Shown in pieces: positions 16,090 through 49,387 of a stretch of 51,759 nt of DNA (the first letter of the stretch is position 1; every line of letters begins with the position of its first letter). The DNA is from Escherichia phage vB_EcoD_Fulano1. The position numbers were made by a program, and so were the translations under genes. Under the pieces are notes generated by a model. It searched no databases. It had not been told where the DNA came from and saw only the letters and a list, made by a program, of their open reading frames with translations. The stretch lies in sequence record OL539459.1. The stretch is one strand, 5' to 3'.

Positions 16090-19000
16090 ATGGCTGAAAA
16101 TATGATAACTGGCAGTAAGGGTGGATCATCAAAACCTTATGTGCCGAAAGAGATGGAAGATAACCTGATCTCAATCAACAAAATCAAAATCCTTCTTGCC
16201 GTTTCCGATGGTGAGTGCGATCCAGATTTCACGCTTCGCGATCTGTATCTCGATGATGTTCCGGTAATTGCAGATGATGGAACTGTTAACTATCAGGGTG
16301 TGAAAGCTGAATTTCGACCTGGAACGCAGACGCAAGATTACATCCAGGGGTTTACTGACACATCAAGCGAAGTGACGCTGGCGCGTGACATTACGACAAC
16401 AAATCCTTATGTAATTTCCGTAACCAACAAAACATTATCGGCTATCAGAATCAAAATGCTAATGCCAACAGGCATTAAGCAAGAGGATAACGGCGATCTT
16501 GTCGGCGTTAAGGTTACTTATGCTGTTGATATGGCTGTTGACGGAGACTCTTACAAAGAAGTATTGCGAGACACTATCGAAGGTAAAACGCGATCAGGTT
16601 ACGACAGAAGCAGAAGGATTGACCTTCCGGAATTTAATGATCGCGTATTACTTAGGGTTAGAAGGGTTACGGCAGACAGCACATCCTCTCGTGTTACTGA
16701 TCTGATTAAACTACAAAGTTACGCTGAGGTTATTGATGCAAAATTCCGTTATCCTCTGACTGGTCTTGTATACGTTGAATTTGACAGTGAGTTGTTCCCT
16801 AACCAGATCCCTAACATTTCAATCAAGAAGAAATGGAAGTTGATTAATGTTCCTAGCAATTACGATCCGGTAATGCGAGAGTATCACGGTTCATGGGATG
16901 GTACGTTCAAGAAAGCGTGGTCGAACAATCCGGCGTGGGTACTTTATGACATTATCACAAACCAGCGATACGGATTAGATCAGCGAGAGCTTGGTGTACA
17001 GGTTGATAAATGGAGTCTTTACGAAGCGGCGCAATACTGCGATCAGAAAGTTCCTGACGGGAAAGGCGGTACAGAGCCGCGTTATCTATGCGACGTTGTG
17101 ATTCAAAGCCAGATTGAGGCTTATCAGCTTATTCGTGATATTTGCTCAATCTTCAGAGGCATGAGCTTTTGGAATGGAGAGAGCTTGTCAATCGTCATTG
17201 ATAAGCCGCGCGATCCGTCGTACATCTTCACAAATGACAATGTTGTTGATGGTGATTTTCAGTACACAACAGCAAGTGAAAAGAGCATGTACACGCAGTG
17301 CAACGTGACGTTCGATGACGAACAAAACATGTATCAACAGGACGTAGAGGGTGTATTCGACACAGAGGCCGCATTGCGATTTGGATACAATCCTACAAGC
17401 ATAACCGCGATCGGATGTACACGCAGGAGTGAGGCTAATCGGCGCGGTCGATGGATACTAAAAACCAACTTGCGCAGCACTACGGTAAACTTTGCTACTG
17501 GACTGGAAGGCATGATCCCATCAATAGGTGATGTGATTGCTATTGCTGACAACTTTCACAGCAGCAACCTTAAGTTAAACCTATCAGGGCGAGTGATGGA
17601 AGTTTCCGGCTTGCAGGTATTCGTTCCGTTTAAGATTGATGCTAGACCAGGTGATTTCATTATCATCAACAAGCCGGACGGAAAGCCAGTTAAGCGCACA
17701 ATCTCAAAAGTAAGCGGTGACGGAAAAACCATTGAGCTAAACATAGGGTTTGGATTTGAAGTTAAACCGGACACGGTTTTTGCAATCGACCGCACTGATA
17801 TTGCATTGCAGCAATACGTTGTAACGAGTATCGGCAAAGGTGATGATGATGATGAATTTACATACTCCATCACGGCTGTTGAATATGACCCGAACAAATA
17901 CGACGAGATTGATTATGGAGTAAATATTGACGACAGGCCAACTTCAATTGTCCAGCCTGACACAATGGCAGCGCCTGAAAATGTGCAAATATCCTCATAC
18001 TCGCGAATTGTCCAGGGTGCAAGCGTTGAAACAATGGTTGTGTCGTGGGATAAAGTACCTTACGCATCGCTGTATGAAATGCAATGGCGAAAAGGTGATG
18101 GCAACTGGCTGAATACACCACAGACCGCAAACAAAGAAATTGAGGTTGAAGGTATTTATTCAGGAAACTACCAGGTAAGGGTTAGATCTGTTTCTGCTTC
18201 AGGTTCGACTTCTCCGTGGTCCAGAATTGTAACAGCCTCACTGACAGGTAAGGTAGGAGAGCCAGGCGCTCCAGTTAACTTAACCGCATCCGACAATGAG
18301 GTGTTTGGCATTCGTGTTAAGTGGGGGATGCCAGAAGGGAGCGGAGACACGGCATACATTGAACTTCATCAGTCGCCAGATGGAACAGCGGAAAACTCAA
18401 GCCTGTTAACGCTGATCCCATATCCACAATATGAATACTGGCACGGTACGCTTCCGGCTGGTCATGTTGTATGGTATCGGATCAGGAGCGTAGACAAGAT
18501 CGGCAACGTTTCCGGTTGGACTGATTTTGTTAGAGGTATGGCTTCAGATGATGTTGAGGCTGTTTTAGGAGATATTCTTGATAAGATTTTTGATACTGAA
18601 GCAGGTCAGGATCTGAAAGAGAACGCCATTGACAGTGCAAACAAGATAAAGGACCAGGCGCAAGCAATCATCCAGAATGCTCTTGCTAATGATGCTGATA
18701 TTAAGTGGACGCGAGTACAAAACGGAAAGAGAAAGGCTGAATATGGTCACGCTCTTGAGCTTATCGCCACAGAGACTGAGGCGCGAGTTACGCAGATTGA
18801 AGAATTGAGGGCGTCAATCGACGAGGATATTGTTTCAAGCATAAAGACAGTGCAGGAGGCTATCGCCACAGAATCTGAAACGCGAGCAACTCAAATAAAT
18901 GCTTTGGATTCAAAATTCACAACTGAAATTGACGGTGTAAAACGCGATACAGCCGCAAGCATTAATCAAGTGAATCAAACCATTGCCAATGAGTCAGAAG

Positions 19001-19668
19001 CGCGCGCGCAGGCCGTTAACGCGCTTGATGCGAAGTTCACAAAGGAGATCGAAGATTTAAACGGAGTCATTAAGACTGAGGTTGAGGCTAACATCTCTGA
19101 AGTGAAACAGGCTATCGCTAACGAGACAGAGGCAAGGGTACAGGCTGACCAGGCGTTAACAGCTAAGTTTGGAGACGTTGAATCTGCATTAGCTCAAAAA
19201 CTTGATTCATGGGCTGGCGTATCGTCTGTTGGTGCTAAATACTCAATGAAACTTGGGTTAACTTACAACGGGCAGAAGTACAGCGCAGGAATGGTAATGC
19301 AGCTTTCGCAGAGTTCATCCGGCCTTATCTCGCAAATCTTGTTTGACGCGAACAGGTTCGCGATTATGACTAGCTCGACTGGCGGAACGTTTACTTTGCC
19401 TTTTGTTGTTGAAAACAACCAGGTTTTCATTAATAGCCTGTTAGTTAAAAACGGTTCAATCACAAATGCTATGATCGGTAATTATATTCAGTCGAATAAC
19501 TTTGTTGCCAATCAGCAGGGTTGGAGGCTGGATAAAAGCGGAAGATTTGAGAACTACGGTTCTACATCTGGAGAAGGGGCCATGAAGTTGACAAATGAAA
19601 CGATAAGTGTACGAGACGCAAACGGGCGCTTGCGTGTTCAGATTGGTAGGCTTACTGGTACGTGGTAA
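16090..19668 (+). CDS. host specificity protein J-like central tail fibre
   Basis: 1192 aa, lambda J-like position; C-terminal periodic repeats (ETEARxxQ...ALxAKF). Confidence 0.85.
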   Translation: MAENMITGSKGGSSKPYVPKEMEDNLISINKIKILLAVSDGECDPDFTLRDLYLDDVPVIADDGTVNYQGVKAEFRPGTQTQDYIQGFTDTSSEVTLARDITTTNPYVISVTNKTLSAIRIKMLMPTGIKQEDNGDLVGVKVTYAVDMAVDGDSYKEVLRDTIEGKTRSGYDRSRRIDLPEFNDRVLLRVRRVTADSTSSRVTDLIKLQSYAEVIDAKFRYPLTGLVYVEFDSELFPNQIPNISIKKKWKLINVPSNYDPVMREYHGSWDGTFKKAWSNNPAWVLYDIITNQRYGLDQRELGVQVDKWSLYEAAQYCDQKVPDGKGGTEPRYLCDVVIQSQIEAYQLIRDICSIFRGMSFWNGESLSIVIDKPRDPSYIFTNDNVVDGDFQYTTASEKSMYTQCNVTFDDEQNMYQQDVEGVFDTEAALRFGYNPTSITAIGCTRRSEANRRGRWILKTNLRSTTVNFATGLEGMIPSIGDVIAIADNFHSSNLKLNLSGRVMEVSGLQVFVPFKIDARPGDFIIINKPDGKPVKRTISKVSGDGKTIELNIGFGFEVKPDTVFAIDRTDIALQQYVVTSIGKGDDDDEFTYSITAVEYDPNKYDEIDYGVNIDDRPTSIVQPDTMAAPENVQISSYSRIVQGASVETMVVSWDKVPYASLYEMQWRKGDGNWLNTPQTANKEIEVEGIYSGNYQVRVRSVSASGSTSPWSRIVTASLTGKVGEPGAPVNLTASDNEVFGIRVKWGMPEGSGDTAYIELHQSPDGTAENSSLLTLIPYPQYEYWHGTLPAGHVVWYRIRSVDKIGNVSGWTDFVRGMASDDVEAVLGDILDKIFDTEAGQDLKENAIDSANKIKDQAQAIIQNALANDADIKWTRVQNGKRKAEYGHALELIATETEARVTQIEELRASIDEDIVSSIKTVQEAIATESETRATQINALDSKFTTEIDGVKRDTAASINQVNQTIANESEARAQAVNALDAKFTKEIEDLNGVIKTEVEANISEVKQAIANETEARVQADQALTAKFGDVESALAQKLDSWAGVSSVGAKYSMKLGLTYNGQKYSAGMVMQLSQSSSGLISQILFDANRFAIMTSSTGGTFTLPFVVENNQVFINSLLVKNGSITNAMIGNYIQSNNFVANQQGWRLDKSGRFENYGSTSGEGAMKLTNETISVRDANGRLRVQIGRLTGTW

Positions 19669-19675
19669 AATCAAA

Positions 19676-19700
19676 GCGGGGCATTTGCCCCGCATTTATG
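19676..19700 (+). terminator. terminator-like hairpin after J gene
   Basis: stem GCGGGG/CCCCGC, weak ATTTAT tract. Confidence 0.4.
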
Positions 19701-19711
19701 GAGGTTTAATA

Positions 19712-20017
19712 ATGGCTGAATATGGTGTTTCAACGTGGGATGCTAACGGGAAGTATAACAACTACGGAATCAAGCCAGTTTCCGTTGTTGGTGTCATTAG
19801 CCTTGCGGCTGGTCAGACAAGCGGATCGTGGAGCTTTAGCATTCCAAGTGGTTTTAAGGTTGGGTATGTTGTTTCGCTTGATGAGGGTGCTAGAGGGGTT
19901 GGAAGGGAAATAGTAGCATCTGGAAACACAATAAGAATCAGTCCTACATCTTCAGTTGGTGCAAATAGATATTCTTCTTCAAAGTGTGAGTTAGTTGTTT
20001 TTCTTGAGAGGGCTTAA
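19712..20017 (+). CDS. hypothetical tail-associated protein
   Basis: trimmed to ATG 19712 behind GGAGG; begins MAEYG like next gene. Confidence 0.35.
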   Translation: MAEYGVSTWDANGKYNNYGIKPVSVVGVISLAAGQTSGSWSFSIPSGFKVGYVVSLDEGARGVGREIVASGNTIRISPTSSVGANRYSSSKCELVVFLERA

Positions 20018-20018
20018 A

Positions 20019-20657
20019 ATGGCTGAATATGGAGCAATGTTATCTTTATCAAATGGGAATCCATTTATCACACCAAAATCAACGCCATTTTGCTTATATG
20101 GCAAGTACACTTATTCATCTTCTGGCACTTCTGCCTATCATAGCGCAAGCGCAAATATACCATTGAATCAATCTTATCCATGTATGGCATTTATAAAAAC
20201 AACAAACACACAGCAGCCAACTGCATTAATAGCTTACAGGAATGGTGGCAACATTTATGTAAACGGAGGCAATCCATACGGGCAATCATTTACAATGACT
20301 GTTTATATATTTGCCATATTCCCTCAAACTCTACCCAAATATGGTATGGCTATATGGGATGCAAGCGGCAAGTTGGTTTTAACTAATGAAAGCAGGGTGC
20401 TAACAGATCTTGTTACAATTGGTACTCCTGGTTCTTCAGGTGGAACGAATATAGATCAAACGTTATCTGGTTCTTATGCCGTTTGCCCGTCAAGGCTTGG
20501 TGCGGTTGTAGGCATGGGGGCTTCTGATATATACACATCATGCAGGTATAATGGTTCAAGCACAAGGATAGGTGCAGCAAGGACAACGCCAGGAACAGGA
20601 TCTATAACAAATAACGGAAATTCAATAATTGCAATAAAGACTGATATTTACGACTAA
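20019..20657 (+). CDS. hypothetical Ser/Thr/Gly-rich protein (fibre-like)
   Basis: trimmed to ATG 20019; begins MAEYG and contains internal copy of the WDAxGK module. Confidence 0.35.
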   Translation: MAEYGAMLSLSNGNPFITPKSTPFCLYGKYTYSSSGTSAYHSASANIPLNQSYPCMAFIKTTNTQQPTALIAYRNGGNIYVNGGNPYGQSFTMTVYIFAIFPQTLPKYGMAIWDASGKLVLTNESRVLTDLVTIGTPGSSGGTNIDQTLSGSYAVCPSRLGAVVGMGASDIYTSCRYNGSSTRIGAARTTPGTGSITNNGNSIIAIKTDIYD

Positions 20658-20660
20658 TGA

Positions 20661-20690
20661 AAAAGGGGCTTTCGCCCCTTTATTTTTATT
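20661..20690. terminator. bidirectional intrinsic terminator
   Basis: A-run, stem GGGGC/GCCCC, T-run; between convergent genes. Confidence 0.7.
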
Positions 20691-20917
20691 TACAGACTGC
20701 AATCAGCGTTTTTAAAGTTATCAATACTTACCCACTGAAAATTAAACGGATAGCCAGCCTTAACAAGAGTGCGGTCGCCAACTCGTTTCACTCCGAAAAT
20801 AGCAACTGAATACTGCATTCCGCTATTTTCATAAATAGCCGTGCATTCACGTTTAGGCATATTTGCGCACCCAGTCAGGGTTACGGCTGCAATCAAAACG
20901 GCGATTAACTTTTTCAT
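20690..20917 (-). CDS. cor: lipoprotein, Cor-like superinfection exclusion candidate
   Basis: 75 aa, signal peptide MKKLIAVLIAAVTLTGC with lipobox, RBS AAGGAG; located after tail fibre genes as for cor in T1/phi80-type phages. Confidence 0.5.
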   Translation of the reverse strand: MKKLIAVLIAAVTLTGCANMPKRECTAIYENSGMQYSVAIFGVKRVGDRTLVKAGYPFNFQWVSIDNFKNADCSL

Positions 20918-20973
20918 GTTGGTGTCTCCTTAGTTGTTGTTGGTTGCAACTATACACGATCTTGCGGTGGGCG

Positions 20974-20991
20974 TTTAGCAAAAAGTGCTAT
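20974..20991 (-). promoter_or_regulatory. recurrent element upstream of Cor-like gene
   Basis: on minus strand ATAGCACTTTTTGCTAAA then ~21 nt then TATAGT then RBS then ATG 20917. Confidence 0.45.
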
Positions 20992-21160
20992 TCTTGTTCT
21001 TTTTGTTATCCGGCGTTCTCAAATCTGCGGAGTCTTAAATTTAGCTCAAAAAGTGAACAACAATAGAGCGCAATACATACAGATAAATATATACATACAT
21101 ATAAATCAATAAGTTAGCAGTATATATATTCATGTTTGTTCTTTATTGTTATCTATGTTT

Positions 21161-21224
21161 TGTGTGATTTTGTGTGTCTGGTGATTTTTCTGTGATTATG
21201 CATGTGTCAGTGGTTATGTGTGTC
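21161..21224. repeat. phased TGTG/GTGATT short direct repeats (~10 bp period)
   Basis: TGTGTGATTT TGTGTGTCTG GTGATTTTTC TGTGATTATG CATGTGTCAG TGGTTATGTG TGTC. Confidence 0.5.
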
Positions 21225-21360
21225 TATATATCTATATCCGGCGCAAATTGAGGAACAAGAGAACAAAAAGACAACAAAGATATTTATCAATCACTTACAT
21301 GTAAGTTTTGTTATCAAAGCTGGCTAGAACGTTGCTAGAACAGAAAAAACAAAATAACTA

Positions 21361-21388
21361 TTGACTAAACGCATCAAATAGCTACAAT
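21361..21388 (+). promoter_or_regulatory. sigma70-like promoter TTGACT-16-TACAAT for recombination operon
   Basis: TTGACT 21361-21366, TACAAT 21383-21388, about 30 nt before ATG 21418. Confidence 0.55.
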
Positions 21389-21417
21389 GCAGACATACCA
21401 ACCAATGAGGGCAAATC

Positions 21418-22479
21418 ATGAATAAGTTTATGGCGTACACCAGCGAAGAAATGAGCAATGAGCTTTATCACGATCCAGAAGCGTGGACGGCTGATTATGT
21501 TAGCGGTTCAAGCCTGGCAGAGATTTACAGCACATGCCCGGCAGCGTGGAAGTTCAAGCCGCGTGACGACAAGAGCAAGGCGCTAGTTTTTGGTACGCAG
21601 TCGCATACCAACTTTGAAAGCAAGGAGCTTTTCGAAAAAACCTATCGCCGTGCGCCAGCACCAGAAGACTTTAAGGATCTGATAACCAGCCAAACGGCGC
21701 TTGCTGCAAAGCTGAAATCATTTGGCCTGAAAGGTACAACCGGAAAGACTTATCCCGAACTTATAAAAATGATGGTTGACTGCGGAGAAGACCTTAACGT
21801 CATGTGGTTAATCGACATGATCGCAGAAAGTCAGGCCAGGGCCGATGGGGTTCAGTTAATAGAGTCTAAAGATTACGATTCGTGCGTGGCAATGCGCCAG
21901 GTTCTGGAATCAATACCGGAACATAACGCATGTATGAATAGCAAGACGGCACAACGTGAATTATCGTTGTTCGGTGAAATTAACGGCGTAAAAGTCAAAG
22001 TGCGATGCGATCACGTTGACGTAACAAAGAACGTCACAGCAACGCTGATTGATGGTTACGATGAAAAAGGTCATCCGATTTGCCGCGATATTATTTATCC
22101 AGAGGCCATTGTGATCACAGACTACAAAACTACAATGAGCGCGAATCCGGCTGAGTTTATGCGCCTGGCTTACAATCACGGCTATTATTTGAAAATGGCG
22201 TTGCAATGTGATTTATTCAGAAAAGCGTATCCAGAAGAAAAGCGACCTATAGTTGTGCGACTGTTAGCGCAAGAGAAGAAAGAGCCTTATTTGCCGTTGG
22301 CTTTCCGCATGAACAGCGAGCAATTGAAGATCGGGCGCATTCAGTACATGAGCGTAATTAACCAGTTTGCCATGTGCCAGCAACATGACGTTTGGCCTTC
22401 GTATTCAAACGGCGAGCCGGAGGTTTGCCTTGATACTCCTGACTGGGTGCGACGCCAGTTTAAGCAATATCTTATTTAA
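21418..22479 (+). CDS. recombination exonuclease (PD-(D/E)xK family)
   Basis: 353 aa; motif VITDYKT; first gene of exo-Erf-SSB operon behind TTGACT-16-TACAAT promoter. Confidence 0.55.
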   Translation: MNKFMAYTSEEMSNELYHDPEAWTADYVSGSSLAEIYSTCPAAWKFKPRDDKSKALVFGTQSHTNFESKELFEKTYRRAPAPEDFKDLITSQTALAAKLKSFGLKGTTGKTYPELIKMMVDCGEDLNVMWLIDMIAESQARADGVQLIESKDYDSCVAMRQVLESIPEHNACMNSKTAQRELSLFGEINGVKVKVRCDHVDVTKNVTATLIDGYDEKGHPICRDIIYPEAIVITDYKTTMSANPAEFMRLAYNHGYYLKMALQCDLFRKAYPEEKRPIVVRLLAQEKKEPYLPLAFRMNSEQLKIGRIQYMSVINQFAMCQQHDVWPSYSNGEPEVCLDTPDWVRRQFKQYLI

Positions 22480-22560
22480 ACAGCACAAATAGCTAAACAA
22501 ATGAAAAATGCGGTGTTATAATTCACCGCATAAGTTAACAACAAGCGTAAGGAAATAAAC

Positions 22561-22839
22561 ATGGAAAACAAACAAGTGTCAGAGGTGGCAGTTCATATCA
22601 ATAATTTTGCAACTGGCATGGCTATGTTGCTTCGTGACTTTGTAGCGCCGCTTGATCCAACGGCAGGCGCAGAAGAAATGGAGTACATCAGAAAAGTAAT
22701 GGATGCAGTCGATAACGTCGTACTTGTTGCAACAATGAGCGAAGACAACGAGGAAGCAATCAAGGCGGTAAAAGAAAGTTCTGATCGCATGATGGAAAAT
22801 CTGATTAAATTACACACCAAAGAAGAAACAAAACATTAA
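22561..22839 (+). CDS. hypothetical acidic protein
   Basis: 92 aa, Asp/Glu-rich, between exonuclease and erf. Confidence 0.4.
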   Translation: MENKQVSEVAVHINNFATGMAMLLRDFVAPLDPTAGAEEMEYIRKVMDAVDNVVLVATMSEDNEEAIKAVKESSDRMMENLIKLHTKEETKH

Positions 22840-22848
22840 CAGCAATAA

Positions 22849-22864
22849 GGCGGCGAAAGCCGCC
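22849..22864 (+). other. GC hairpin with GAAA tetraloop (no T-run)
   Basis: GGCGGC-GAAA-GCCGCC between 22561..22839 and erf. Confidence 0.4.
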
Positions 22865-22884
22865 ATTAATTACGGGAATTAATC

Positions 22885-23541
22885 ATGAAACTATCAGAGC
22901 AATTCGACAAGGTTTTACCAGCACTGCATAAGGCGCGTAGTTTGTTTGTAAAAGTGAAGAAGGATAAGCAAAACACGCACCTTAAAAACCGTTACGCGAC
23001 ACTTGATGCCGTACTTGATGCAATCACTCCAGCATTGAATGATAACGAGCTAATGTTGATGCAGGACATGATTGAAAGCGAACAACCTAACAGAATCAAG
23101 GTTGAGACAACAGTTCTTCATGTTTCCGGTCAGTGGGTGAAATTCTACGCAGAGCTACCAATAGTTAAAAACGATCCTCAAGGTGTAGGATCTGCATTCA
23201 CATACGCGCGTCGTTATGCAGCAGCCGCAGCATTTGGCTTAAGCCAGGCAGACGATGACGCACAGATTGCCGTTAAATCTGCAAACGACTGGAAACGTGA
23301 CATTGAGAAATGCGAAAGCGTAAACGAATTACAAGAAGTGCTTAAATCAGCATGGAAGGCAAGCGATCCGGCAAGCAAACAGGTAATTAAAGAGCATTAC
23401 GAAAAACGCAAGGCAGAGCTTGAGATAGGCAAAGCACGAGGATTTAATCCAGCGCAACCAAAGAAAAATCTTGCCTCGCCAGAAGTTGACACAAAAAACG
23501 ACGAGCAAGTAAAATCACAAAGTATCACTGATTTTGAATAA
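22885..23541 (+). CDS. erf: Erf-family single-strand annealing protein
   Basis: motif [24 protein letters not shown] matches the conserved core of P22 Erf-family proteins. Confidence 0.65.
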
Positions 23542-35590: not shown

Positions 35591-35989
35591 ATGAGAAAGC
35601 TATCAGCAATCGCGATCGCTGTTATTTTGTCTGGATGTTCAAGCGTTATGCCACTGACCGGATTAATCGGTAGTAAGCCGGAAATCACAGCACAGGCAGG
35701 AGCGGAGAACGTAAAGCAGACCGTTGGCGTTACCGCAAAGCAGGACACCAGCACGAAACAGGAAACTACAATAAAGGAATCTGCGGTTGATAAGGTGGAC
35801 ACTTCCAGCAAGAAGGATTTCACTACGTCAACCATTCAGGCTAACACCATCAAGGCCGATAAAATCCAGGTCGTGCAGGGGGAGCAAAGGAAGTGGTACG
35901 ATCCTATAATCTATTGCGCTGCAATTTTCAGTGGTCTTTTGACTATGCTTTACTTTTCCTACCGCAAAGATAACAAAAAGGAGGCTTAA
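35591..35989 (+). CDS. unimolecular spanin (u-spanin)
   Basis: lipoprotein signal MRKLSAIAIAVILSGC plus C-terminal transmembrane helix; architecture of the T1 gp11 u-spanin. Confidence 0.7.
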   Translation: MRKLSAIAIAVILSGCSSVMPLTGLIGSKPEITAQAGAENVKQTVGVTAKQDTSTKQETTIKESAVDKVDTSSKKDFTTSTIQANTIKADKIQVVQGEQRKWYDPIIYCAAIFSGLLTMLYFSYRKDNKKEA

Positions 35990-43549: not shown

Positions 43550-43578
43550 TTGACTACCTGGCTGTGAGTATTGATAAT
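43550..43578 (+). promoter_or_regulatory. sigma70-like promoter TTGACT-17-GATAAT for rightward early operon
   Basis: TTGACT 43550-43555, GATAAT 43573-43578, 33 nt before ATG 43611. Confidence 0.55.
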
Positions 43579-43610: not shown

Positions 43611-43910
43611 ATGACAAAAATGCTTGCAATAAACCGAAAACTTGAAGTGAAAGAGATGTCACAAGATGATATTGATGATTTGGCGCGCGGCATGACAACA
43701 GGTTACATGCGGAGAATTGTCAATCACTTGATTAACTCTGAACGAAATAAGGCCGTATACATCAGCATAAATCACGCTGGAGGGAATGCTGCATCAATGC
43801 GACAGATGATTAACAACGTGGCAAAAGAGTTAAATGTTGATGTTAAGACGTTTGTTGTTGATGGATTCCTGGGCCTGGTAATACTTGAAGTTAACGAAGC
43901 GTTTGCATAA
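43611..43910 (+). CDS. hypothetical early protein
   Basis: 99 aa, first gene behind TTGACT-17-GATAAT promoter, RBS AAGGGAG. Confidence 0.4.
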   Translation: MTKMLAINRKLEVKEMSQDDIDDLARGMTTGYMRRIVNHLINSERNKAVYISINHAGGNAASMRQMINNVAKELNVDVKTFVVDGFLGLVILEVNEAFA

Positions 43911-43921
43911 GGAGTAAGAGA

Positions 43922-44383
43922 ATGGAGCAAGAATTTATTAACCGCGCGGCATTTTGCGACACGTTGCGAGATATTGGAAGGGCTATCGGTAGCGGTGAGC
44001 GAGAAACCGTATTTATGCCTGAAATCTACCTGAGAAGTCGAGTTGAGGGGGGCGACGCAATTACAGCATCGTACATGCGCCAGGTGGTCAACCGTGTGCC
44101 AGAAGTAAAGCAAAAAGGCGTGATCAGCATTAAGCGAAAGGTGACTGATGAGGGTGATGGCTTTGTGTTTACGCTCACTGAAGCCAAAAGCAAGCCTCGC
44201 GTGCTGACTGGAGACGATATAGCGAAACTTGAAATCAAGTGGCGAGCAAAGTTTATTGCTCAACTTCTGAAAACCCAGCCGAGAATCAGCGACCTGGAAG
44301 GCGAGCGCCTGGAGGGTGCGGCAATCGCACTTGAGAGAATGAATGAAATGCTCAACGAGATGGTAAAGGTGGGGGATGAATAG
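43922..44383 (+). CDS. hypothetical protein
   Basis: 153 aa, RBS AAGGAG. Confidence 0.4.
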   Translation: MEQEFINRAAFCDTLRDIGRAIGSGERETVFMPEIYLRSRVEGGDAITASYMRQVVNRVPEVKQKGVISIKRKVTDEGDGFVFTLTEAKSKPRVLTGDDIAKLEIKWRAKFIAQLLKTQPRISDLEGERLEGAAIALERMNEMLNEMVKVGDE

Positions 44384-44649
44384 TGAATAAGGCATTAATT
44401 GGAGTTTTGATTGCAATTGCTACCCTGACCGGATGCGAAAAGGCATCTGAATCAACGGTAGTCGTAGGCGTGGAGTCAGATTTTAAAGTCGGTCGCCTGT
44501 TTACTGTTGATGGATGCACTGCGTACCGATTCTATGATAACGGTCACGCGATCTATTACACCAACTGCAAGGGCACGACTAGCTGGGAAGTGTCGAAAAG
44601 CAACGGCAAGGTAACGACAACAGAACATATGACAGTGGAGACAAAATAG
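44383..44649 (+). CDS. lipoprotein (signal peptide near-identical to Cor-like gene)
   Basis: GTG start overlapping previous stop; MNKALIGVLIAIATLTGC lipobox. Confidence 0.5.
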   Translation: MNKALIGVLIAIATLTGCEKASESTVVVGVESDFKVGRLFTVDGCTAYRFYDNGHAIYYTNCKGTTSWEVSKSNGKVTTTEHMTVETK

Positions 44650-48947: not shown

Positions 48948-49211
48948 ATGGTTTTTAACGCACTAAAACGAATCTTTAAACCTGAATACCGGATCGTTGC
49001 TTGCACAGAATGCAAGATTTATTACCTGCAACGCCGCCGCGTTATTAGTGGCGATTGGGAATATCTGACGGATGATGCTTTCGGCTTTTGGGCTATGGAG
49101 TTCAATAGCTACAGCGAAGCGCGTGAGTACGCTAAAAAGTTGCACAAGTTCAGACCTTACAAGCTGCGTTTGCTGGTTGTCAAAAAATGCGATGTGTTGG
49201 ATCACGAATGA
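48948..49211 (+). CDS. hypothetical protein
   Basis: 87 aa ORF. Confidence 0.35.
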   Translation: MVFNALKRIFKPEYRIVACTECKIYYLQRRRVISGDWEYLTDDAFGFWAMEFNSYSEAREYAKKLHKFRPYKLRLLVVKKCDVLDHE

Positions 49212-49387
49212 AAAGAGTAATTATCATTTTTATTGCCATTATCGCTGGTTGCTACCTGGCTTATAATTATAGCGGCATTGTTGAGTCAATCGGCAGGTTG
49301 ATTATCTTCATGGCTGGCGGGTATGCTGGCTATTATGATGGATTCGAAAACGGAAAGCGTTACATGCTTACCGGAAAAAAGAAGTAA
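49208..49387 (+). CDS. small membrane protein / possible lipoprotein
   Basis: ATGA overlap at 49208; MKRVIIIFIAIIAGC resembles signal peptide with lipobox. Confidence 0.35.
   Translation: MKRVIIIFIAIIAGCYLAYNYSGIVESIGRLIIFMAGGYAGYYDGFENGKRYMLTGKKK

Follow-up and report, generated by a model that had tools for sequence, protein, structure and literature searches.

Cor and a DUF4884-like lipoprotein with similar signal peptides in the T1-like phage vB_EcoD_Fulano1

The closest described systems to the genes considered here are superinfection-exclusion lipoproteins: the Cor/Llp group, comprising Cor of phages phi80, N15, HK022, and T1 together with Llp of T5 (PDB 8A60), and Rtp45 of phage Rtp, which binds LptDE (PMC12685063; PDB 9RPS). 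Here, we compare with these systems two small genes of Escherichia phage vB_EcoD_Fulano1 (sequence record OL539459.1). The whole stretch of 51,759 nucleotides was analyzed and is referred to as the window; at 51.8 kb, it is a complete T1-like coliphage genome (Drexlerviridae, Tempevirinae, Hanrivervirus-like). The original prediction had named a Cor-like lipoprotein and, at a distance, a second lipoprotein with a near-identical signal peptide, and both open reading frames (ORFs) were recovered at the same coordinates and with the same N-termini:

20690..20917, minus strand: cor, superinfection-exclusion lipoprotein of 75 amino acids (NF047972, PHROG 1119, identity to the EC147 protein)
44383..44649, plus strand: P2, DUF4884-like / PHROG 6360 lipoprotein of 88 amino acids with a GTG start (Pfam, PHROG, family alignment)

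The reading that we favor, with a confidence slightly better than even, is that Cor would mask the phage's own receptor, that P2 would act as a general envelope factor, and that the signal peptides would constitute an export module of the phage backbone.

Family affiliation of Cor and P2

Cor reads MKKLIAVLIAAVTLTGC followed by ANMPKRECTAIY..., the mature part beginning ANMPK... after the Cys. Its signal peptide spans residues 1-17 with the lipobox LTGC, the mature start is C-A-N, and two further Cys residues are present. The protein scored 70.1 bits on the NCBIfam model NF047972 lamb_exclu_cor (residues 1-73; cutoff 31), matched PHROG 1119 (E=4.2e-29), and shows 100% identity to a protein annotated as Cor in phage EC147; 456 phage records match it. 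With T5 Llp (8A60_B), it aligned weakly over the full length. On Pfam LPAM_1, it reached 19.6 bits, slightly under the cutoff of 20, and Ala at position +2, not Asp, is as expected for sorting to the outer membrane (OM).

The position of cor is that of a cassette downstream of gpJ which also holds two membrane-protein genes:

19607..20657, plus strand: two genes downstream of gpJ matching PHROG 557 "outer membrane protein" (E=1e-29) and PHROG 425 "membrane associated protein" (E=5.5e-69)
20662..20681, no strand assigned: GC-rich terminator-like hairpin between the convergent PHROG 425 gene and cor (terminator scan)

Both genes have the same annotation and synteny in phage grams, and the "extended cor cassette" made up of cor and the PHROG 557/425 genes after gpJ was tied to FhuA-using phages in a 2026 paper (PMC13164509). 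Judged by its sequence and by this position, the product of 20690..20917 is a Cor family member, as the original prediction had it, a finding that is already known. We infer from the cassette type that its receptor here is FhuA. Cor would be anchored in the OM facing the periplasm and, as members of its family do, would attach from the periplasmic side to the terminal receptor of its own phage, so that further phage would not adsorb. As to gene boundaries, the PHROG 557 and PHROG 425 ORFs overlap at 19995-20017 in the mechanical ORF list, and the GTG start at 19607 probably lies too far upstream; in grams, the homologue has 101 amino acids, and the match to the PHROG starts only at residue 38.

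P2 reads MNKALIGVLIAIATLTGC, continuing with EKASESTVVVG..., and comprises a signal peptide of residues 1-18 with the lipobox LTGC, the mature start C-E-K, and the conserved residues Cys45 and Cys62. It matched PHROG 6360 (E=6.5e-12) and aligned, with a score below the Pfam cutoff, to the N-terminal two-thirds of the profile of Pfam DUF4884 (PF16225; residues 32-61, with the LFTVDGCxxYRF...Y(Y/F)TNC core). The precomputed label PF16225.11 was found on all retrieved homologues, some of P2's relatives scored above the Pfam cutoff (32.7 and 34.5 bits), and close homologues in GenBank are labeled "hypothetical" or "DUF4884 domain-containing protein" (e.g., Henu8 gp6, 74% identical). DUF4884/PHROG 6360 is a group of uncharacterized lipoproteins of about 90 residues in which membership gives no mechanism.

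This family is large. Homologues were detected by tblastn in 120 phage records; the family comprised 36 homologous clusters at first and 211 clusters at 90% identity in a profile search, and it reaches at least 1,819 representatives at 50% identity (E<=0.001), or 845 at E<=1e-10. Nearly all members are 80-95 residues long. A lipobox was present in 116 of the 121 relatives sampled, three more having LFGC, and the lipobox Cys is conserved in alignments. As the +2 residue is Asp in only 4 relatives and Glu in P2, the family would be directed to the OM under the standard E. coli sorting rule. Exactly two Cys residues occur in the mature domain of 80/116 members and four in 31, and the invariant core reads LFTVDGCxxYRFxD...Y(Y/F)TNCxG. 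In the AF2 model, the mature part forms an all-beta, six-strand beta-meander (mean pLDDT 75). A profile search of PDB sequences with P2 yielded nothing, PADLOC gave no match, and NCBIfam returned signal-peptide-level noise only.

The claim that 44383..44649 encodes a second real lipoprotein was thereby borne out at the level of predicted lipidation, the lipobox being conserved in the relatives of a large family. Most likely, judged by their sequences, Cor and P2 are both exported lipoproteins anchored in the OM. We rejected the possibility that P2 is a pseudo-ORF, the family being conserved, at identities as low as 40%, in phages that infect several hosts. Longer family members (130-290 amino acids) were considered as domain fusions; in these, the signal peptide lies in the interior and no second Pfam domain is present, and they were set aside as gene-calling run-ons. 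A natural in-frame deletion variant of P2, P0036 (59 amino acids), was found on 5 near-complete phage contigs, the longest of 51 kb. In this variant, the lipobox Cys is joined straight to ...TAYRF with residues 19-45 gone, and the deletion apparently took place between repeated GGATGC copies in the lipobox and the VDGC core.

Signal peptides and lipobox junctions

ORFs with a lipobox N-terminus are enriched in the genome: a six-frame scan identified four, with 0.15 expected from 60 Markov-simulated genomes. Apart from Cor and P2, these are:

35591..35989, plus strand: u-spanin, which with Cor and P2 makes up the genome's three true lipoproteins (PHROG 1804 Rz-like spanin, E=4.5e-50; N-terminus MRKLSAIAIAVILSGC...)
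49208..49387, plus strand: small membrane protein of 59 amino acids with two hydrophobic segments, in which the IAGC motif is not a conserved lipobox

The u-spanin, absent from the lipoproteins listed in the original prediction, combines a lipobox N-terminus with a C-terminal transmembrane helix, as expected of a unimolecular spanin. It comes after holin- and endolysin-sized ORFs, and the syntenic KarlJaspers gene is annotated as u-spanin. A T1 gp11-type unimolecular spanin is thus present here as an OM lipoprotein that would use the export route of P2. In contrast to this late lysis protein, P2 has no transmembrane helix and lies outside the lysis cassette; as the genome has a u-spanin, P2 was also rejected as an o-spanin. 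The product of 49208..49387, put forward earlier as a third lipoprotein, does contain ...IIAGC; however, its FritzSarasin homologue (49% identity) reads ...LFGSY... with Ser replacing Cys, and a second hydrophobic segment follows beyond IIAGC, which together indicate a small two-helix membrane protein and not a lipoprotein.

The resemblance between the signal peptides of Cor and P2 is real, at 13/17 residues and 39/51 nt with one 1-residue gap, for which "near-identical" was slightly too strong a term. Aligned on the Cys, the two peptides agree at 11 of their 14 final residues; when Cor was compared with 110 distinct signal peptides from P2 family members, the median was 5-6/14. We consider it rather doubtful that this likeness is a coincidence or a product of convergence, even though enterobacterial lipoprotein signals are short, low in complexity, and constrained. 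An argument for convergence is the following protein, which was the best match in a scan of 2.9 million viral contigs with the Cor peptide:

L025:2501-3307 (IMGVR_UViG_3300046804_001657): SPFH/Band-7 lipoprotein of 268 amino acids, MKKLIAVLFAAATLAGC

Although unrelated, it matches the Cor signal peptide at 14/17 residues and 37/51 nt, with codon sharing at chance level. Since its signal peptide is closer in residues, this signal-peptide type evidently recurs by convergence, and the likeness is uninformative on function. LTGC is, moreover, the commonest lipobox across the P2 family (56/116). On the other side, it took a scan of 2.9 million contigs to find this control, but Cor and P2 stand together in a genome that encodes three lipoproteins, the third of which, the u-spanin, has a dissimilar signal peptide (5/14 to Cor, 3/14 to P2). 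Among the 12 non-start residues that Cor and P2 share, 9 have the same codon, compared with 3.9 expected from the codon usage of the genome (Poisson-binomial P=0.003, a post hoc test on 12 codons and the sole test behind a shared ancestry of the signal peptides). FritzSarasin shows the same codon-sharing tendency, with the same 12 nt of lipobox DNA in its exclusion gene. Finally, the P2 signal peptides nearest to that of Cor are the Hanrivervirus variants (this phage, A16a, and KarlJaspers), in genomes with this very exclusion-gene signal peptide. Common descent of the two signal peptides is therefore suggestive, not proven.

Comparison of related genomes located module breaks at the lipobox in both genes:

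20867..20917, minus strand: signal-peptide coding segment of cor; backbone homology ends at the lipobox Cys codon (KarlJaspers and L024 comparison)
44383..44436, plus strand: segment encoding the P2 signal peptide, with invariant lipobox DNA (CTGACCGGATGC) that marks a mosaic junction (five-phage DNA alignment)

The segment 20868..21600, covering the exonuclease side, the cor promoter region, the ribosome-binding site (RBS), and the signal peptide, is 96% identical to KarlJaspers; this homology ends at the Cys codon and picks up again only at the gpJ end (19682). Likewise, 20865..21600 is 95% identical to a contig from IMG/VR (L024, IMGVR_UViG_3300045988_040344), the junction lying at 20865, again at the Cys codon. 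Three exclusion alleles, namely, Cor, a divergent Cor-like one, and an Rtp45-like one, were found behind this same signal peptide. Cor on other backbones has different signal peptides, as does Rtp45 of Rtp; on a Tempevirinae-type backbone, by contrast, an Rtp45-like domain carries the signal peptide of Cor. One signal peptide behind three mature exclusion domains ties the signal peptide to the backbone and not to the function, and the sequences suggest that the receptor-binding module brings its mature exclusion domain along. The Rtp45-like mature domain of the IMG/VR contig (L024:2501-2698; PHROG 4281) follows the very signal peptide of Cor, and the contig shows how an LptD-type module entered a Hanrivervirus-like genome by exchange at the lipobox junction.

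In P2, the DNA of five phages is conserved through the CTGACCGGATGC Cys codon; beyond it, two core alleles and no fewer than two tail alleles occur in reassorted combinations. In our proposal, promoter, RBS, and signal peptide would stay with the Tempevirinae backbone, and mature domains would be exchanged by recombination at the lipobox Cys codon. We regard this lipobox-junction mosaicism as a small new observation.

Receptor use, gene neighborhood, and possible roles of P2

The shared export signal had, in the original prediction, suggested a second exclusion or receptor-masking factor. P2 would then mask a receptor from the periplasm, be it the phage's own receptor or co-receptor or the receptor of competitors. 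We consider this unlikely. The mature parts of Cor and P2 differ, as had been noted from the outset: for mature P2 against mature Cor and other exclusion proteins, the HHalign probability was 0.2%. P2 did not match NF047972, its fold showed no similarity to Llp (8A60) or Rtp45 (9RPS), and Cor weakly matched PHROGs 6360 and 902, both also matched by P2, only across the N-terminal signal-peptide region. What P2 has in common with the Cor/Llp group is the general format of a small OM-sorted lipoprotein alone; it lies away from the receptor-binding locus, and its alleles vary independently of that locus. This format does fit an exclusion protein: some 70 mature residues, a tether that is short and flexible, OM sorting, and a Cys pair capable of forming a disulfide. 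The mosaic, diversified alleles of P2 resemble those of an arms-race protein, and P2 sits in blocks of early type for the lytic cycle, T5 Llp likewise being reportedly made soon after infection. Exclusion is the only role that is established for early phage OM lipoproteins (PMC9586334, PMC12685063).

The distribution of P2 is more difficult to reconcile with receptor masking. P2 homologues occur in phages carrying the FhuA-linked cassette (this phage, Henu8, and PGN590), in KarlJaspers and FritzSarasin, whose exclusion locus has a divergent Cor-like allele (31-39% identity, PHROG 1119 E=4e-11), and in the LptD-associated phages Rtp (rtp3) and JeanPiccard, resistance to the latter mapping to lptD (PMC8594841). 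P2 is thus present whatever the terminal receptor, and it also occurs in phages of hosts as distant as Serratia, Pseudomonas, and Xanthomonas. In GenBank genomes, from which the allele pairing was taken since IMG/VR contigs gave only two paired contigs, a near-same Cor (97-99% identical) is paired with three P2 alleles (in this phage, PGN590/A16a, and SLUR29), and one P2 allele is paired with different exclusion alleles. Presence across receptor types and independence from the Cor alleles imply that P2 is not the cognate mask of its own phage's receptor; on these sequence comparisons, such a role is unlikely. Rtp carries both Rtp45 and rtp3, at opposite ends of its genome, which suggests that P2 and the receptor-specific exclusion protein have separate functions. 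In addition, the conserved core of P2 points to a conserved partner and not to a variable receptor.

The neighborhood of P2 was compared across phages, starting from two features upstream of the gene:

43550..43578, plus strand: sigma-70-like promoter candidate TTGACT-17-GATAAT (promoter scan, 10/12, consensus match only)
43922..44383, plus strand: DUF7174 gene (Pfam PF23796, 144.5 bits), whose stop overlaps the P2 start by 1 nt

The promoter candidate precedes a three-gene unit (43611..44649) of which P2 is the last gene. The DUF7174-P2 pair was also found in Henu8, Rtp (rtp1-rtp3), KarlJaspers, FritzSarasin, morffagbaw, and tonnikala, i.e., it is conserved across Drexlerviridae, where it lies in a small-gene block beside the polynucleotide kinase gene; outside this family, no linkage of DUF7174 to P2 was detected. 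DUF7174 had no PDB match and belongs to a PHROG of unknown function, thus giving no functional lead for P2. At 44381-44385, the DUF7174 stop and the P2 start read TAGTG, where four aligned relatives have TAATG; a single A-to-G substitution accounts both for TAG in place of TAA and for GTG in place of ATG, with stop and start both kept. In Rtp, rtp1-rtp3 are the first three genes of the genome, and the P2 homologue rtp3 is the third from the left end. P2 homologues were further found in small-gene arrays of Serratia myophage MyoSmar, Pseudomonas phage Dolphis, and Xanthomonas jumbo phage BUDD, on a 351-kb metagenomic contig among small early-type genes, and, flanked by lambda-P-like and NinH/NinE/NinG genes, in the nin region of a lambdoid prophage of Pantoea. 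This DUF4884 gene belongs to the prophage of Pantoea sp. CCBC3-3-1 (CP034363.1 1253411-1269680), which also carries an HicAB pair and an Acb2/Tad1-hairpin gene beyond its lysis cassette. In the genomes inspected, P2 was never next to tail-fiber, receptor-binding, or lysis genes; here, it lies 23.5 kb from the receptor-binding/cor locus, and in every genome inspected it occupies an early-type small-gene block.

Such surroundings might speak for a role of P2 in lysis control or in an envelope-stress or host-takeover function directed at peptidoglycan-OM links, an OM biogenesis machine, or a periplasmic defense, for P2 stands among small genes of host-takeover type in many phage types, including the lambdoid nin region, is distributed independently of the receptor, and is conserved across gamma-proteobacterial hosts; this seems quite unlikely, however, considering that none of the inspected genomes has P2 beside a holin, endolysin, or spanin gene and that P2 matches neither PADLOC entries nor a characterized fold and would have no precedent among phage lipoproteins.

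We return to the proposal that P2 is a general envelope factor distinct from Cor. P2 would be translationally coupled to DUF7174 in a block of small, presumably early genes. It would be exported by Sec, lipidated by Lgt, cleaved by LspA, and sorted to the OM by Lol, Glu and not Asp being at position +2. During lytic growth, it would bind a conserved envelope component from the periplasmic side; the short tether, OM sorting, the conserved core, the receptor- and host-independent distribution, and the early-gene context together lead us to this idea. P2 would thereby be a general envelope or entry-modifying factor, with masking of the phage's own receptor left to Cor. A receptor-independent exclusion, or another envelope-directed role, is possible. 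Sp and Imm of T4 are receptor-independent exclusion proteins that act in the envelope. Ltp of Streptococcus phage TP-J34, also a lipoprotein, is reported as another case of receptor-independent exclusion (PMC3952083). For P2, these proteins offer a functional analogy only, no sequence or structural relationship to them having been detected.

Several points weigh against this interpretation, in addition to the SPFH signal peptide and the post hoc character of the codon test described above. P2's own score on DUF4884 is 23.9 bits (E=3.5e-5), below the gathering cutoff of 30. Its fold has no match among solved or viral structures outside its family. No functional study of P2 was found in the literature on DUF4884, Hanrivervirus/Tempevirinae lipoproteins, and T1-like early lipoproteins. 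We infer early expression of P2 from position and one consensus promoter match, and envelope binding is proposed from anatomy and distribution alone. Finally, the deletion variant P0036 suggests that P2 is dispensable.

It is tempting to speculate further that DUF4884-type proteins are a class of receptor-independent lytic envelope effectors, acting in superinfection block or as inhibitors of BAM, Lpt, or Tol-Pal and common to siphophages, myophages, jumbo phages, and lambdoid phages that infect a wide range of Gram-negative bacteria, and that in T1-like phages the lipobox DNA serves as a dedicated recombination joint behind a fixed promoter, RBS, and signal peptide. As a whole, this generalization seems unlikely.

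Repeated motif, related genomes, and significance

A 15-nt motif, GCACTTTTTGYTAAA, occurs in 14 copies with <=2 mismatches in the window, compared with 0.58 expected:

20974..20988, minus strand: motif copy 57 nt upstream of the cor start, on the cor strand
6393, 10154, 20974 (the copy just listed), 28984, 29475, 31999, 33040: motif sites (motif scan)
39145, 40064, 42115, 42991, 44649, 47056, 49721: further motif sites (motif scan)

The sites checked are intergenic and ahead of genes, the copy at 44649 overlapping the P2 stop before the next gene. KarlJaspers and FritzSarasin have kept the motif ahead of their exclusion genes, and it is probably a repeated promoter or operator element of this phage.

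The region 19000-23000 shares 95-97% nucleotide identity with the Hanrivervirus phages JLBYU09, Henu8, and grams, and the right half of the genome shares 91-94% identity with KarlJaspers, JakobBernoulli, pSf-1, and others. About 20 GenBank records besides MG065636, named "Campylobacter phage" (UNVERIFIED; host C. jejuni), are Hanrivervirus genomes with about 92-95% identity to the coliphage in the regions compared, and their host attribution looks doubtful.

The similar export signals of Cor and P2 show an envelope destination only, not the same job, and this holds a caution for annotation: similar signal peptides are no evidence of shared function. The module breaks at the lipobox Cys codon provide a concrete case of swapping secreted effector domains with expression and export signals kept, and such junctions may be of use when the host range or the exclusion modules of T1-like phages are to be engineered. 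P2 represents a very large uncharacterized family of phage lipoproteins and is a small, easily cloned, and cheap target in which to look for effects on exclusion or on the envelope; a clear phenotype of any kind would give thousands of "hypothetical" genes an annotation.

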